Counted from the stretch's first letter, positions 57,230 to 63,357 are shown. The stretch is DNA of 64,000 nucleotides from Acidimicrobiia bacterium (GCA_036396655.1 DASWKK010000066.1:912-64911); one strand, 5' to 3'. The notes: a model not told the origin generated them from the letters alone. Numbers and translations are program-made.

Positions 57230-57859
57230 ATGACATCGCCCGTCGGCCCGACATCCCCGACCGAACAAGAAGTCCGAACACTGGTCGAGAGTGTGCTCGA
57301 CGGAGTCCTGGGCTCCGACTCCGACCGGCCCGGGCCGGATCCCGCCCCGCCGACCCCGGCCGGGGCCGACGAGGGAGTGCCGAAGGCAACTATCGCGGTG
57401 GGATCCGACCACGGCGGCTACCCGCTCAAGGAGAGGCTGGCATTCAAGCTCCGAGAGACCGGCTACGAGATCGTCGATTGCGGGACGGACTCACACGACG
57501 CAGTCGACTATCCCGACTTTGCCCACGCAGTAGCCCGAGAGGTCAGCTCCGGGTCCTGTCGTTACGGCATCGTGGTGGACGGAGCCGGAATCGGTTCGGC
57601 CATGGTGGCCAATAAGGTGCCGGGAGTGCGCGCCGCCTTGTGTTACGACCTGTCGTCGGCCCGTAACAGCCGAGAGCACAACCATGCCAACGTGTTGACT
57701 CTGGGGGCCGGGTTGATCGGGGAGGCTCTCGCATGGCAGATCGTCGAGGAGTGGCTCTCTGTCGATTGGGGTGGTGGTCGACACGCTCGCCGGGTTGCCA
57801 AGATCGACGAGGTGGAACGGCAATACTCCGGATCCGGCGTGAGTCAGGATCACCGATGA
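57230..57859 (+). CDS. rpiB: ribose-5-phosphate isomerase B family sugar-phosphate isomerase with ~55-aa N-terminal extension (amphipathic helix plus Pro-rich linker; putative encapsulation peptide)
   Basis: Core [17 protein letters not shown]...[17 protein letters not shown]...; extension [17 protein letters not shown] followed by [21 protein letters not shown]. Confidence 0.8.
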
Positions 57860-58689
57860 ATCGCGATGCGTTGGTCGAGGCGGTGACTCGGGAGGTGATC
57901 GCTGCTCTCTCGACTCGCTACGACGTGTGTGACACCGGCGAGAAGGTGCGCGAGGTCGTGGCCAACGGGGTCGACCGCGTCGCCTTTCACGGCGAGGCGG
58001 CCGAGGTGCCCCTGGACATGGCTCGATACATCGATCACACCCTGCTCAAGCCCGAGGCAACGGCCGCCGAGATCGACCAGCTTTGTCGCGAGGCCGCGCA
58101 GTACCGCTTCGCCTCGGTTTGCATCAATCCGACATGGGTCAAGCGCGCGGCGGAGAATCTTCGGGGCACAGCGGTCCCGGTATGCACCGTGATCGGCTTT
58201 CCCCTCGGTGCCGGCACATCGGAGATCAAAGCGATGGAAGCGCGGAGGGCACTCCGTGACGGCGCACGGGAAGTCGACATGGTGCTCAACATCGGGGCGT
58301 TGAAGTCGGGTGACCATGACCTGGTGCTGAAGGACATCGAGAAGGTGGTCGATGCCGCCCACGAGGTAGGTGCATTGTGCAAAGTCATCCTCGAGACCGC
58401 CCTGCTCACCGACGAGGAGAAAGTGGTCGCGTCGGCTCTCGCCAAGAAGGCCAAAGCGGACTTCGTCAAGACGTCGACCGGGTTCGGCCCGGGAGGCGCA
58501 ACCGTCTATGACGTGGCCCTGATGCGGGAGACGGTCGGGCCCGAGATGGGAGTGAAAGCCTCGGGTGGGGTTCGCACCACCGATGACGCGGAGGACATGA
58601 TCGCTGCCGGTGCTACCAGAATCGGTGCATCGGCCGGGATCGAGATCGTAGGCGGCAAGGATGGAGGACAAGGTGACGAGAGGTATTGA
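57856..58689 (+). CDS. deoC: deoxyribose-phosphate aldolase with N-terminal amphipathic extension (putative encapsulation peptide)
   Basis: [20 protein letters not shown], Schiff-base lysine block [10 protein letters not shown]; N-terminus [19 protein letters not shown] precedes the aldolase core; ATGA overlap with rpiB. Confidence 0.85.
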
Positions 58690-59302
58690 GCTGAGGTCGT
58701 TTGCGTTCCTGGACAGCCTCCAGCCGCAATACGCAGCGTTTCTCGGGACGGTGGCCCAGGGATTCCTCCCGCTGGCCAGCGACTCGTCCCTCTGGGTGGA
58801 AGTGGCTCCAGGTATCGAGATCAACCGTCTGACAGACGTGGCTCTGAAGGCGACGTCGGTCAAGCCGGGTCTTCAGATCATCGAGCGCTTCTACGGCGTG
58901 CTCGAGGTTCACTCACCGGATCAGGCCGAGACCAGAGCCGCTGGGGCGGCCATCCTCGACGGCATCGAGCTGACCGAGCACGACCGGATCAAGCCGCGGA
59001 TCTTGTCGTCCCAGATCATTCGCAGACTCGACGACCATCACGCTCAGCTCATCAACCGGACGCGACACGGTCAAATGATCATCCCGGGTCAGACCCTGTA
59101 TGTCCTCGAATGCGAGCCGGCCGCATATGCGTCACTTGCTGCCAACGAGGCGGAGAAGGCAGCTGAGATCAATGTCCTCGAGGTGCGAAGCTTCGGCTCG
59201 ATGGGCCGGGTGTATCTGGGCGGGGAGGAGCAGGACATCGATGTCGGGTGGCAGGCAGCGGTGGGCGCCCTGGAAGGGCTCACCGGCCGTGATGCCGGCT
59301 GA
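58661..59302 (+). CDS. BMC shell protein, tandem permuted BMC domains (BMC-T, EutL/PduB-like)
   Basis: Two ~100-aa halves each with a permuted-BMC pattern ([31 protein letters not shown]; second half [26 protein letters not shown]); start ATG 58661 or GTG 58676 (GGAGGA upstream). Confidence 0.6.
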
Positions 59303-59351
59303 GAGAGGATCTGCTTGAGTCAACGACTAAGACAACGAAAGGAGGAGCTTC

Positions 59352-59654
59352 ATGGCTGAGGCTCTTGGCATGATCGAAACTCGAAGCTTCTCGGCGATGG
59401 TCGAGGCGGCAGATGCGATGGTGAAAGCCGCCAAGGTGGAGCTAGTGGGCATGGAGAAGACCGGTGGTGGATATGTGACCGCCGTCGTGCGTGGCGATGT
59501 GGCCGCGGTCAAGGCTGCCGTCGACGCCGGTGTCCGGGGAGCGGAGAAGGTGGGTGAGGTCGTCTCGACCCATGTCATCGCACGCCCACACGTCAACATC
59601 GACCTGGTTCTGCCGCTCGGTCGCCAGGATCAGGCGCAAGACGATCTCGGTTGA
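59352..59654 (+). CDS. BMC shell hexamer protein (BMC-H, PduA/EutM/CcmK-like)
   Basis: [55 protein letters not shown], canonical PF00936 sequence; strong AGGAGG Shine-Dalgarno. Confidence 0.9.
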
Positions 59655-59690
59655 CCCACCCATCCGTCGTGGGAGACAGGAGATAGGACC

Positions 59691-60002
59691 GTGCATCTAG
59701 GCAGGGTCGCCGGGACGCTTGTCGCCAGTCGCAAGGAACCCCTCATGGAGGGGATGGTGTTCCTCGTCGTGCGCCAACTCGACTCAGAGAACGCCGAGAC
59801 GGGGAGCTATGTGGTGGCGGTCGACACGGTCGGTGCCGGTGTCGGCGAAGTGGTGCTCTACGCCTCGGGCAGCTCGGCGCGTCAAACGGAATCGACGCGC
59901 GACCGACCGGTGGATGCGGTGATCATGGCCATCGTCGACTCCTGGGATGTCGGGGGAGAGGTCCGGTACCACAAGGGTGACGAAGAGGCGTCGAGCAGGT
60001 AG
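59691..60002 (+). CDS. BMC vertex pentamer protein (BMC-P, EutN/CcmL family) paralog 1
   Basis: [31 protein letters not shown]...[17 protein letters not shown] pattern of EutN/CcmL; GTG start with AGGAGA. Confidence 0.8.
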
Positions 60003-60004
60003 CG

Positions 60005-61462
60005 ATGCTGAGCGACACAGATATCCAGGCCATAATCGAGCGGGTCAGGGGCCGGGTCGCCGCAGCCGAGACGAACCGACGGGCGGCTCCGGCTTTGCGT
60101 GCCTCCGACGACCTCGCCGTGTCCGATGTCCAACTCGGCGACGGCATCCACCCTTCCATCGACGATGCGGTGGCGGCGGCTCGCACTGCCTTTCTCGAAT
60201 ACCGCGAGATGGGGCTCGAATCGCGCAAGTCGATCGTCGAGGCCATGCGAGCCGCGATGTTGCGGGAGGGGGAGCGACTCGGGTACATGGCGGCTGAGGA
60301 GACCGGGATCGGGAGGGGTGAGGACAAGGCGATCAAGAACCGCCTGGTAACCACCAAGACCCCGGGGCCCGAAGACCTCGAGCCACAGGTGGTAACCGGT
60401 GACGCCGGCATGATGGTCACCGAATACGCCCCTTACGGAGTGATCGGTTCGATCACTCCGACCACAAATCCCACATCCACGATCATCAACAATTCGATCG
60501 CCATCGTGTCGGCGGGCAACGCAGTGGTCTTCAACGTCCATCCCAACGCCCGGTTGGTATCGGTCGAGAATGTCCAGCTTCTCAACCGGGCCATCGTCGG
60601 GGCCGGCGGCCCGCCGGATCTGGTGACTGCGATACCCCAGCCGACACTGGAGTCCGCGCGCCAGTTGATGCAACATCCCGAGGTTCGCGTGCTCCTGGTC
60701 ACCGGCGGCCCCGGTGTAGTCAAAGAGGCGCTCAAGACCAGCAAAAAAGCGATAACCGCCGGGCCCGGCAACCCGCCTTCGGTGGTCGACCAAACCGCCG
60801 ACATCGACAACGCGGGCCGCGCCATCGTCAGGGGAGCGTCCTTCGACAACAACGTCATCTGCACCGACGAGAAAACCACGATCGTGGTCGACACCGTCGC
60901 CGACCGTCTAGTGCAGGCGATGGTCGCCGCCGGCGCCTACCGGCTCAAGGAGCACGAGCTGAAGCGTCTGGAGCGGGTGATATTCAAGGAGATGGGGCCC
61001 CCCGGCAAACCGGGGATGATCAACACCGACTGGATAGGCAAGGACGCGGCGAGGATCCTCTCCGAGATCGGGGTGACAGTGGGGGACGAGGTGAGACTGG
61101 TCGTGGCCGAGGTCCGACGCGAGCACAACCTGGTCTGGACCGAACAGATGATGCCGGTGATGCCGGTGGTCCGGGTGAGCAACGTCGAGGATGCCATCGA
61201 TCTCGCGGTTCGCTCCGAGCACGGGTTCCGACACACCGCTTCGATCCACAGCACCAATGTGGAGACGATCACACGCATGGCCCGCGCGATGAACTGCAGC
61301 ATTTTCGTGGCCAATGGGTCCAACTTCAACGGCCTCGGAGAAGGAGGCGAAGGATTCACCTCGTTCTCGATCGCCAGCCCTACCGGGGAGGGATTGACCC
61401 GGCCGCGCACTTTCTCCAGGGTGCGCCGGGTGACGGTGGTCGGAGCCCTGCGAATTGTCTGA
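60005..61462 (+). CDS. CoA-acylating aldehyde dehydrogenase (EutE/PduP-like) with N-terminal amphipathic extension (putative encapsulation peptide)
   Basis: SITPTTNPTSTIINN, catalytic Cys region ASFDNNVICTDEK, C-terminal SPTGEGLTRPRTFSRVRR as in EutE; N-terminus DTDIQAIIERVRGRVAAA. Confidence 0.85.
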   Translation: MLSDTDIQAIIERVRGRVAAAETNRRAAPALRASDDLAVSDVQLGDGIHPSIDDAVAAARTAFLEYREMGLESRKSIVEAMRAAMLREGERLGYMAAEETGIGRGEDKAIKNRLVTTKTPGPEDLEPQVVTGDAGMMVTEYAPYGVIGSITPTTNPTSTIINNSIAIVSAGNAVVFNVHPNARLVSVENVQLLNRAIVGAGGPPDLVTAIPQPTLESARQLMQHPEVRVLLVTGGPGVVKEALKTSKKAITAGPGNPPSVVDQTADIDNAGRAIVRGASFDNNVICTDEKTTIVVDTVADRLVQAMVAAGAYRLKEHELKRLERVIFKEMGPPGKPGMINTDWIGKDAARILSEIGVTVGDEVRLVVAEVRREHNLVWTEQMMPVMPVVRVSNVEDAIDLAVRSEHGFRHTASIHSTNVETITRMARAMNCSIFVANGSNFNGLGEGGEGFTSFSIASPTGEGLTRPRTFSRVRRVTVVGALRIV

Positions 61463-62057
61463 CGGAGCGCAAGCGGTCGCCCTATTCGAGTTTGGCTCGA
61501 TCAGCGCGGGAATCGTCGCCGGTGATGCCATGGTCAAGGCCTCTCCGCTGGGAGCCATCTATGCCGGCACCGTGCACCCAGGCAAGTACCTCGTGTTGGT
61601 CACCGGAGACACGGCCAGTGTCGCCTTGGCTGTCGATGTCGGGAACGAGGTGGGGCGGGAGACAGTAAGCGACGTTGTGTTCCTCGCCGATATCCACCCG
61701 TCCGTTCCCCAGGCGATTCGGGGTAATAGCGCCCGGGCGGCAGTGGGTGACGAGGCCCTCGGCATCCTGGAGACCTCTTCGGTGGCCGCGGCTGTGGACG
61801 CCGCCGACGCAGGGGTCAAAGCTGCCGACGCCCGGCTCGCCGCTATCAGACTGGGCGACGGTTTGGGGGGTAAGGGCTATGTCCTGTTCACCGGGATAGT
61901 GGCGGAGGTCGAGGCGTCGTTGGAGGCGGCGGTGGCCCGCGCCGAAGGTCACGGGACACTGGTGCGCTCCGATCTCATCGCGCAGCTTCACGAGGAGATG
62001 GCTGACAACCTTCGCGCTGACCTCAGTTTCATGAACCGGGTCGCCGGGAGTCGATGA
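61455..62057 (+). CDS. BMC shell protein with tandem canonical BMC domains (BMC-T, PduT-like, no Cys)
   Basis: Domain 1 ALFEFGSISAGIVAGDAMVKASPL..., domain 2 ALGILETSSVAAAVDAADAGVKAADARL...; TTG start overlapping the AldDH stop, start uncertain. Confidence 0.7.
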   Translation: MSDGAQAVALFEFGSISAGIVAGDAMVKASPLGAIYAGTVHPGKYLVLVTGDTASVALAVDVGNEVGRETVSDVVFLADIHPSVPQAIRGNSARAAVGDEALGILETSSVAAAVDAADAGVKAADARLAAIRLGDGLGGKGYVLFTGIVAEVEASLEAAVARAEGHGTLVRSDLIAQLHEEMADNLRADLSFMNRVAGSR

Positions 62058-62058
62058 G

Positions 62059-62337
62059 ATGCAACTGGGCCGTGTCTTAGGAAGCGTCGTCGCCACCAAG
62101 AAGTCCCCCGGTCTGGAGGGAGTCCGGCTTCTCATCGTCCAGCCTCTCGACAAGACCCAGCAACCAAAGGGCGAGAGCGTGGTTGCTGCCGACGCGGTGT
62201 CCATGGCCGGCCCCGGCGAACTGGTGTACTTCGTTGCCTCCCGGGAGGCGGCCGAGGCTCTGCCCGAGCGGTTCGTGCCGGTCGACCACGCTGTGGTGGG
62301 CATTGTCGACCAGATTCACCTGGAATCCAGCCGATGA
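62059..62337 (+). CDS. BMC vertex pentamer protein (BMC-P) paralog 2
   Basis: MQLGRVLGSVVATKKSPGLEGVRLLIVQPLD... EutN/CcmL family. Confidence 0.8.
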   Translation: MQLGRVLGSVVATKKSPGLEGVRLLIVQPLDKTQQPKGESVVAADAVSMAGPGELVYFVASREAAEALPERFVPVDHAVVGIVDQIHLESSR

Positions 62338-62609
62338 AGGTGGGCCGGGTTGCGGGGACTGTCGTGTCCACGATCAAGGTTCCGGTTCTCGACCACCACC
62401 GGCTCCTTCTCTGCGATATCGAGGATCTGAAGGGAAGGTCGTTGGGCTACACCATCGCCGTAGACGTGGTCGATGCCGGCGTGGGCGACAAGGTGCTGAT
62501 CCTCGACGAGGGCAGCTCGGCCCGTCAGATCCTCGGTCTCGAATGGGGTGCGATCCGGGCAGTGGTGGTGGGCATCGTGGATCAGTTGGTGGTGGACGGC
62601 GCGGTGTAG
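62334..62609 (+). CDS. BMC vertex pentamer protein (BMC-P) paralog 3
   Basis: MKVGRVAGTVVSTIKVPVLDHHRLLLCDIEDL...DAGVGDKVLILDEGSSAR; ATGA overlap with paralog 2. Confidence 0.8.
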   Translation: MKVGRVAGTVVSTIKVPVLDHHRLLLCDIEDLKGRSLGYTIAVDVVDAGVGDKVLILDEGSSARQILGLEWGAIRAVVVGIVDQLVVDGAV

Positions 62610-62779
62610 CCGAAGGTACTTCGCCCAGCGCGGAGCTTCGGTTTGAAATCCGAAATAGCGGGTAAGGGCGCTGACCCGATCAACACACACCTTGAATTGA
62701 CATCGATCAACATTGCCGGGGCGGATCAGGGAGAAGCTCCTCCCTCCATCAGTGAGCTACGAGCCCTCACGCCGCCCGA

Positions 62780-62812
62780 TCCGCCCCGGCGATCAACATC
62801 GGATCGGGCCAG
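62780..62812. promoter_or_regulatory. 9-bp perfect inverted repeat with 15-bp spacer immediately upstream of the ECF sigma gene
   Basis: cccgatccg-ccccggcgatcaaca-tcggatcggg. Confidence 0.3.
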
Positions 62813-62814
62813 GC

Positions 62815-63357
62815 ATGCAGGACCATGACTTCCGCGCCCATCTCCGTGCCGCCCGTGCCGGGGATGAGCCTGCCTGGTGGGCCCTCTATCACTGGCTCGC
62901 TCCTCAGGTTCTCGGGTTTCTCCGCGTCAGCCGGGTTCCCGACCCCGAAGACGTCCTCGGTGATGTCTTCCTCGAGGTGGCTCGCCGGATCGATCGATTT
63001 CGGGGCGACGCGCGGGGGTTCAGGGCTTGGGTGTTCACCATTGCACGGGCGCGTCGCGTCGACGAGATTCGGCGCCGTGCCCGGCGTCGGGAAGACCCAC
63101 TCGACACCGGAATTCACGAGCTGTTGCCCTCTCCCCACGATGTCGAGACCGAGGCGCTCGCCATGGTCGGGCTGGACGAGTTGATCGGCCTTCTCGACCA
63201 ACTCACCGACGATCAGAGCGAAGTGCTGGTATTGCGGGCTATCGGTGGTTGGACAGCTCGTGAGGTGGGAGACATCACCGGTCGTACCACCGGATCCGTG
63301 GAGCAACTGCAACACCGGGCGACCAGGGCGCTGAGACAGCTTCTCGATGAGGCGTAA
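62815..63357 (+). CDS. ECF (sigma-70 family, group 4) RNA polymerase sigma factor
   Basis: Region 2 VFLEVARRIDRFRG...FRAWVFTIARARRVDEIRRR and region 4 HTH LTDDQSEVLVLRAIGGWTAREVGDITGRTTGSVEQLQHRA. Confidence 0.8.
   Translation: MQDHDFRAHLRAARAGDEPAWWALYHWLAPQVLGFLRVSRVPDPEDVLGDVFLEVARRIDRFRGDARGFRAWVFTIARARRVDEIRRRARRREDPLDTGIHELLPSPHDVETEALAMVGLDELIGLLDQLTDDQSEVLVLRAIGGWTAREVGDITGRTTGSVEQLQHRATRALRQLLDEA

Follow-up and report, generated by a model that had tools for sequence, protein, structure and literature searches.

What do the enzymes of a bacterial microcompartment (BMC) locus carry at their N termini, and could it direct them into the shell? The locus that raises this question lies at positions 57230–62609 of a window comprising the whole 64,000-nucleotide stretch of an Acidimicrobiia bacterium genome (GCA_036396655.1, DASWKK010000066.1:912-64911). 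Nine tightly packed plus-strand genes fill it, separated or overlapped by 1–49 nt, and they very probably form the operon of a sugar-phosphate-utilizing (SPU) microcompartment of subtype SPU3. Six shell genes share the operon with three cargo enzymes: an RpiB-type sugar-phosphate isomerase (RPI), a deoxyribose-phosphate aldolase (DeoC, or DERA), and a CoA-acylating aldehyde dehydrogenase (AldDH). An earlier note, made from the sequence alone, had claimed that all three bear N-terminal amphipathic extensions resembling encapsulation peptides (EPs). The extensions are real—about 53 residues on RpiB, 52–54 on DeoC, and 46 on AldDH—and they are conserved among orthologues and track shell genes across genomes. 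The interpretation of their three N-terminal helices as encapsulation peptides is supported by these comparisons. The finding itself is already known, the peptides of SPU enzymes having been published; what the window adds is an Acidimicrobiia member.

An EP is defined as an extension relative to non-microcompartment homologues that forms an amphipathic α-helix of about 15–20 residues (Dwyer et al. 2024, Introduction, after Kinney 2012 and Aussignargues 2015). Where each extension ends was read from alignments to solved structures. All 22 solved RpiB/LacAB chains align from RpiB residue 46–55, the best of them from 54–55, which sets the start of the core at 54–55. Together with the Pfam domain boundary, these alignment starts therefore give an extension of about 53 residues relative to solved non-microcompartment homologues, close to the roughly 55 of the earlier note, whose quoted peptide strings, including those for this helix and Pro/Asp-rich linker, all match the sequence exactly. 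AldDH begins MLSDTDIQAIIERVRGRVAAA; its catalytic core aligns to solved chains from about residue 47 (best matches 5jfl and 4c3s), leaving a 46-residue extension. Residues 5–485 of this enzyme match positions 4–465 of the PRK15398 profile, and Cys286 is present.

The boundaries of DeoC depend on its start codon. The longest open reading frame (ORF) begins at 57733, a start that we rejected: the frame ahead of 57856 runs over rpiB and shows no conservation at the protein level, and orthologue starts match MNR(D/E). The true start is the ATG at 57856, which overlaps the rpiB stop as ATGA (4 nt); a beginning of the form M/V/L-N-R-(D/E) is common to 42 orthologues, some of which use GTG or TTG. 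Counted from there, the TIGR00126 deoC match (289 bits against a cut-off of 117) places the core at residues 55–264, and most of 37 solved DERA chains, including all the closest, align from residue 53–59. The extension thus measures 52–54 residues, rather than the 35–40 proposed before. D141, K205, and K234 are invariant in the family alignment, so that the class I Schiff-base lysine and its partner aspartate and lysine are present; by our own motif reading, we take them to correspond to E. coli D102, K167, and K201.

Conservation along the extensions differs among the three enzymes. In RpiB (43 orthologues), consensus frequency is 0.74 over the gap-free helix, falls to 0.25 in the linker, and returns to 0.83 in the core, and in-frame indels add 14 alignment columns to the linker. 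These sequences show the textbook pattern of a putative helix that is conserved beside a linker that is hypervariable. AldDH (35 orthologues) follows it less sharply, at 0.79 for the helix, 0.60 for the linker, and 0.85 for the core; I10, I11, V14, R17, and V18 of its helix are invariant. The same helix aligns colinearly with residues 2–17 of E. coli EutE, whose N terminus was taken from the annotated K-12 record and in which the linker region is deleted. In DeoC (42 orthologues), by comparison, consensus frequencies along the extension are 0.76, 0.67, 0.84, and 0.76 against 0.87 for the core: residues 3–20, the helix, stand at 0.76, and residues 21–53 at 0.67–0.84. The second of these elements contains seven positions that are invariant or nearly so (C25, R32, G38, R41, H45, G46, and P52) and a core motif, NGA(D/E)R(V/I), that recurs in DeoC of Ignavibacteria, Zixibacteria, and Chloroflexia. 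Because the whole DeoC extension is conserved, residues 21–53 do not behave as a flexible linker. The proposed architecture of helix plus flexible linker accordingly holds for RpiB and roughly for AldDH, and fails for DeoC.

Structure prediction is compatible with helices without being decisive. AlphaFold2, run on RpiB and DeoC with family alignments, predicted a helix at RpiB residues 12–23 at a predicted local distance difference test score (pLDDT) below 50, followed by a linker, also below 50, that lacks secondary structure. For DeoC, the predicted helix spans residues 3–20 at pLDDT 55–69, and confidence over residues 21–53 is below 50.

Amphipathicity was assessed as the hydrophobic moment, on both the Eisenberg and Fauchere-Pliska scales, with shuffles and sliding windows. 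The best 11-residue moments of the three peptides are 0.49–0.55, compared with 0.55 for E. coli EutE and 0.69 for EutC, and 40-residue slices of the three catalytic cores give a background median of 0.50; shuffle z-scores range from −0.6 to 1.7. We dropped the moment as proof of amphipathicity, since the peptides score like EutE but also like the median slice of core. A hydrophobic stripe of the form ΦΦxxΦxxxΦ (Φ, hydrophobic) is far more discriminating: it is found in the N termini of 42 of 43 RpiB, all 42 DeoC, and all 35 AldDH orthologues, against 12% of background windows. The three peptides of the window all carry its acidic form, ΦΦExVxxxV, whose background is 2.5%. Examples are IIERVRGRV in AldDH and LVEAVTREV, which occurs as such or as an equivalent in all 42 DeoC orthologues. 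Of the claim that the helices are amphipathic, the conserved stripe and the low-to-moderate-confidence helix predictions for RpiB and DeoC survive, and the moment, no higher than background, does not contribute. As judged from the sequences, it is the comparative pattern, not amphipathicity, that constitutes evidence beyond chance.

The link to microcompartments was evaluated across genomes. A DeoC scan of 185,579 species genomes yielded 71 loci, each of which was searched for the nine window proteins and had its DeoC N terminus reconstructed. Extension and shell genes occur together at 51 loci, which is 51 of the 59 with an extended DeoC; shell genes without a DeoC extension were seen at 0 of 71. 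At eight loci both are missing, and there an in-frame stop lies 6–27 codons upstream of the core, so that an extension is impossible. For DeoC, the claim thereby withstands the refutation test put forward in the earlier note, and the solved RpiB and DERA chains agree with it. Extensions are found beside shell genes in Acidimicrobiia, Chloroflexia, Zixibacteria, Krumholzibacteria, and Oscillospiraceae, and about 40 loci from Acidimicrobiia and Chloroflexia keep the same nine-gene order.

Gene fusions show where the peptide is kept when two cargo proteins become one. In Zixibacteria, Krumholzibacteria, and related loci (L043, L044, L046, L047, L052, L070, and L042), RpiB and DeoC are fused in one frame, with their domains on either side of a putative amphipathic helix and an NGA(D/E)R-like element, and the other seven genes stand in the order of the window. 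Unfused RpiB of microcompartment loci carries a helix of its own; fused RpiB starts straight at MKIAIGADHGG and has none, and the 22 solved RpiB chains likewise lack the peptide. The DeoC of Oscillospiraceae microcompartments has a short extension of 33 residues, consisting of helix and spacer without the second element.

Several observations weigh against reading the extensions as encapsulation peptides. The conservation of the entire DeoC extension suggests that part of it probably does something besides tethering. Eight loci have an extended DeoC and no shell gene in the DNA available around them: five of Ignavibacteria type, two from Myxococcales, and one whose contig runs out 1.2 kb downstream. 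Because the 71 loci cluster by phylogeny into a handful of lineages, the two-by-two counts do not represent independent events. The hydrophobic moment fails to separate the peptides from ordinary globular sequence, and AlphaFold2 confidence in the RpiB and DeoC extensions is low to moderate. Finally, the SPU papers cited here report no experiment in which an SPU peptide targets cargo into a shell.

The Ignavibacteria-type DeoC proteins (L048–L051 and L054, with L072 and L073 of Melioribacter roseus P3M-2) have a distinct layout. Their extension is 72 residues long and runs in the order helix, YCxxxTCxGWERN, and NGA(D/E)RIAAG element, and their deoC lies among housekeeping genes (folD, a SpoU methylase gene, and aroA). 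In M. roseus, the nearest BMC-domain gene is 9.4 kb from deoC. The BMC genes of that organism are spread over five loci, of which four count as satellite or satellite-like (Axen et al. 2014), and DeoC with EP-like extensions has been reported away from HO-type loci in Myxobacteria (Sutter et al. 2021). We therefore did not accept extended DeoC with housekeeping neighbors as a refutation: with BMC loci scattered in this way among relatives, neither the Ignavibacteria-type nor the Myxococcales loci refute the claim.

Two alternatives retain some standing. The first, which we regard as possible though unlikely, is that the helices act mainly between cargo proteins, as aggregation or complex-forming elements that nucleate an enzyme core, shell contact being made by only one helix or by another surface. 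Full-length DERA of subtype SPU6 is insoluble and becomes soluble once its extension is deleted (Dwyer et al. 2024), as this alternative would expect, and a common ΦΦExVxxxV motif in all three peptides suits helix–helix bundling as well as it suits a common docking site. Against it, DERA and RPI form a complex even when the DERA extension is missing (Dwyer et al. 2024). Moreover, EPs are described in the literature reviewed there as doing both, aggregating cargo and binding grooves between shell tiles, and the alternative overlaps with encapsulation without excluding it.

The second alternative concerns DeoC only, and we hold it equally tentative: residues 21–53 would serve the enzyme as a structural or regulatory module, for instance a docking surface or a metal-binding element that has degenerated, rather than as a tether. 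Near-core conservation of this element and the recurrence of its NGA(D/E)R(V/I) motif across phyla fit this proposal, as do the two β strands that Dwyer et al. (2024) model here after an amphipathic helix in all SPU DERA. Cysteines at the element's border fit as well—2–4 of them in sister lineages and an invariant Cys25 in the lineage of the window. On the other side, AlphaFold2 yields no confident fold, and a sequence search of the Protein Data Bank with the AldDH and DeoC extensions returned no significant match. The 55-residue DeoC extension, searched against 1.84 billion representative proteins, gave 23 matches, mostly N-terminal DeoC fragments or DeoC proteins; three long matches are repeat proteins, which we discarded as chance hits, and among these proteins the search located the extension on no other enzyme family. 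The Oscillospiraceae enzyme, a microcompartment DeoC that does without the element, also speaks against this proposal.

The border in question, between helix and second element (57916–57936, residues 21–27), is an insertion hotspot, and DeoC of other lineages holds 2–4 cysteines there, for example GGCATCRLACATSCPDRVR, CIDCKGACAAHCSDKVR, and CAGCLQSCAAQCATKVR. Such variants occur in L040 (10001–10861), in proteins P0378 and P0379, and in loci L043, L059, and L060. The pattern CX2CX3CX3C is found in L040, a Chloroflexia locus, and in P0378 and P0379, which are metagenomic; C25 is the single invariant cysteine kept in the window's lineage. These residues may be a vestigial metal-binding motif. 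A rather improbable extension of that idea is that DERA carries a two-part module, an encapsulation helix and a conserved element of about 30 residues, whose cysteine cluster has decayed here to C25. The text of Dwyer et al. (2024) makes no mention of the junction cysteine cluster. If the cluster binds a metal or iron–sulfur center, some SPU microcompartments could gate the packaging or activity of DERA by redox state or by metal.

Far less survives of the idea that the extensions are tails particular to certain lineages, have nothing to do with the microcompartment, and serve in, for example, oligomerization, membrane association, or export. An amphipathic moment no greater than that of ordinary protein sequence leaves some room for it, and yet the extensions appear in unrelated phyla wherever shell genes adjoin and are absent from the eight shell-less DeoC loci without extension and from all solved homologues. 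Their mean hydrophobicity, about 0–0.1, is too low for a membrane or signal peptide, and we consider this explanation very improbable. That the extensions are untranslated artefacts of start-codon choice is almost certainly wrong: the GGAGG is separated from the rpiB ATG downstream of it by 14 nt, a wide spacing for a ribosome-binding site, and automated annotation often assigns inconsistent starts to these genes (Dwyer et al. 2024), but helix conservation of 0.74–0.79 persists in orthologues down to about 55–65% identity, every linker indel is in frame, the start position is kept although its codon varies among ATG, GTG, and TTG, and the products in public annotation are likewise 209, 277, and 485 residues long.

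The locus resembles a published group. N-terminal EPs are listed for AldDH and DERA of SPU3 (Sutter et al. 2021, Nat Commun, Supplementary Data 2). Dwyer, Sutter, and Kerfeld (2024, Commun Biol) describe an extension on all SPU DERA, a typical EP with linker on SPU RPI, and an N-terminal EP on AldDH in every SPU subtype except SPU6. Because the window's AldDH lacks a C-terminal tail beyond ALRIV, the SPU6 pattern is excluded. As in SPU3, the only enzymes are AldDH, pfam02502 (RPI), and pfam01791 (DERA), with RPI before DERA and neither a phosphotransacylase (PTAC) nor PduS; AldDH and DERA have N-terminal EPs, and RPI has a typical EP and an aspartate in place of its cysteine. The shell agrees too, with a CcmP-like BMC-T(dp), a BMC-T(s) that lacks both a PduS partner and pore cysteines, one standard BMC-H (with KAAK and ARPH), and three BMC-P (EutN_CcmL) genes. 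Sutter et al. (2021) count Actinobacteria and Chloroflexi among the phyla that host SPU3. On every point that is checkable, the locus agrees with the published description, with the BMC-P color clades outside the comparison. Nothing substantive differs from it: this is an unfused form, in Acidimicrobiia, a class not named in the SPU texts consulted. In detail, the RpiB spacer has about 26 residues against "around 75" in the modeled SPU RPI (Dwyer et al. 2024), and the DERA extension about 53 against 70 in SPU6.

The RPI–DERA fusions of SPU3 (Marinimicrobia, Axen et al. 2014; Verrucomicrobia, Dwyer et al. 2024) have their domains in the order of the genes here and share, ahead of the DERA core, the helix and NGA(D/E)R element. 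The helix in them is internal and RpiB is without a peptide, whereas here the genes are separate, overlap by 4 nt, and encode a putative helix on each protein. Likeness extends to the EPs of the Eut and Pdu systems (EutC 1–19, EutE, PduP, and PduD), where an N-terminal helix of about 15–18 residues, putative in the window, likewise bears the ΦΦxxΦxxxΦ stripe and is followed by a spacer before the catalytic domain; the AldDH N terminus is colinear with that of E. coli EutE, and the hydrophobic moments of the window peptides fall in the EutE range. The third position of the motif sets them apart, being acidic in the window, with Glu in every peptide, and basic in E. coli, with Lys in EutE and Arg in EutC, as does an 11-residue Pro-rich cap before the RpiB helix. 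They also differ in kind of evidence, since EutC 1–19 has been found sufficient for targeting by experiment and the SPU peptides are known from their sequences.

How the system would work follows the published model: deoxyribose 5-phosphate enters the shell and is cleaved there by DERA, and the acylating AldDH, also inside, turns the acetaldehyde into acetyl-CoA. During assembly, cargo would be gathered by the N-terminal helices, which would also attach it to the shell's inner face. On RpiB and AldDH, the helix would be tethered through a poorly conserved spacer; on DERA, it would be followed by the conserved element of about 30 residues that is present in many phyla.

In RpiB, Asp117 (codon 57578–57580) occupies the site of the catalytic cysteine, VVDGAG aligning to ICGTG of 3ph3 and 3he8. 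Replacement of this cysteine (E. coli Cys66) by aspartate has been described for all SPU RPIs (Dwyer et al. 2024), and Asp117 agrees with their reported low or absent ribose-5-phosphate isomerase activity. Given the aspartate in place of the catalytic cysteine, RpiB may act chiefly as a scaffold, a partner with which DERA is packaged.

Features of the locus and its borders are collected in Table 1. The double-stacking BMC-T protein scores just below the NCBIfam CcmP equivalog cut-off of 340 bits (E = 2.4e-101). The PduT-like BMC-T protein has zero cysteine residues and therefore cannot hold the iron–sulfur cluster of the PduT pore. No gene for PTAC, PduS, or alcohol dehydrogenase was found in the window from about 7,000 to 64,000 or in the 4 kb past its end. 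The genes of the locus do not reveal a route by which so minimal a shell would recycle CoA and NAD+ internally. The annotated remainder of the window, from about 7,000, is housekeeping in character: Rho, RF1, ATP synthase, paa genes, PFOR, and MetRS.

Table 1. Features of the probable SPU3 operon and its immediate borders, in window coordinates
Feature	Coordinates	Strand	Basis and remarks
Candidate locus regulator, 245 aa, weak helix-turn-helix	56437..57174	-	Synteny and sub-threshold Pfam matches; outside the cargo finding
RpiB-type sugar-phosphate isomerase (SPU RPI), 209 aa	57230..57859	+	Pfam LacAB_rpiB, residues 55-192; NCBIfam match
Putative RpiB encapsulation-peptide helix, residues 12-27	57263..57310	+	Conservation, AlphaFold2; preceded by 11-residue Pro-rich cap
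RpiB linker, residues 28-53, Pro/Asp/Ala-rich, hypervariable	57311..57388	+	Consensus frequency, AlphaFold2, alignments
Deoxyribose-phosphate aldolase (DeoC/DERA), 277 aa	57856..58689	+	TIGR00126 equivalog; start common to orthologues
Predicted DeoC N-terminal helix, residues 3-20	57862..57915	+	AlphaFold2, conservation, stripe motif
DeoC conserved second element, residues 21-53	57916..58014	+	Conservation; not a flexible linker
BMC-T double-stacking shell protein, CcmP-like	58661..59302	+	NCBIfam CcmP, 337.8 bits; CsoS1D_N in public annotation
BMC-H hexamer shell protein	59352..59654	+	Pfam BMC domain, 103.6 bits; KAAK and ARPH interface motifs
BMC-P pentamer shell protein, first of three	59691..60002	+	Pfam EutN_CcmL
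CoA-acylating aldehyde dehydrogenase (AldDH), EutE/PduP family, 485 aa	60005..61462	+	NCBIfam PRK15398, 616 bits
Putative AldDH encapsulation-peptide helix, residues 4-21 (DTDIQAIIERVRGRVAAA)	60014..60067	+	Conservation; EutE alignment
AldDH linker, residues 22-46	60068..60142	+	Consensus frequency; EutE alignment
BMC-T single-layer tandem shell protein, PduT-like, no Cys	61455..62057	+	Two Pfam BMC domains; PduT model
BMC-P pentamer shell protein, second of three	62059..62337	+	Pfam EutN_CcmL
BMC-P pentamer shell protein, third of three	62334..62609	+	Pfam EutN_CcmL
Terminator-like hairpin directly 3' of the last operon gene	62619..62635	+	Consensus scan only

Genes at either border were considered as regulators of the locus. 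The 245-residue protein is divergent from rpiB and 55 nt from it, and 29 syntenic SPU loci have it in this position next to rpiB, on its upstream side, at identities down to 41%. Its Pfam matches, to MerR and HTH_17 over residues 59–104, are all sub-threshold, and NCBIfam returned no match; synteny makes it a candidate dedicated regulator, different from the GntR/UTRA regulator described for SPU6. On the 3' side, the plus-strand ORF 62713–63357 encodes an extracytoplasmic function (ECF)-type sigma-70 factor, in which Pfam recognizes regions 2 and 4. On identical contigs, public calls give instead a 182-residue minus-strand ORF without domains (62767–63315), which is probably a wrong-strand call. 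We rejected the ECF factor as a locus regulator: it adjoins the operon in only five syntenic loci and is therefore probably just a neighbor.

The wider consequence of these results is limited, although they illustrate that a reading of raw sequence alone can recognize cargo-targeting peptides correctly. For the family, the locus adds a well-conserved example from Acidimicrobiia to a microcompartment type that breaks down deoxyribose 5-phosphate originating in DNA detritus. Its compact nine-gene operon, with three putative cargo peptides that share one motif and an acidic third position, would make a convenient test bed for engineering.

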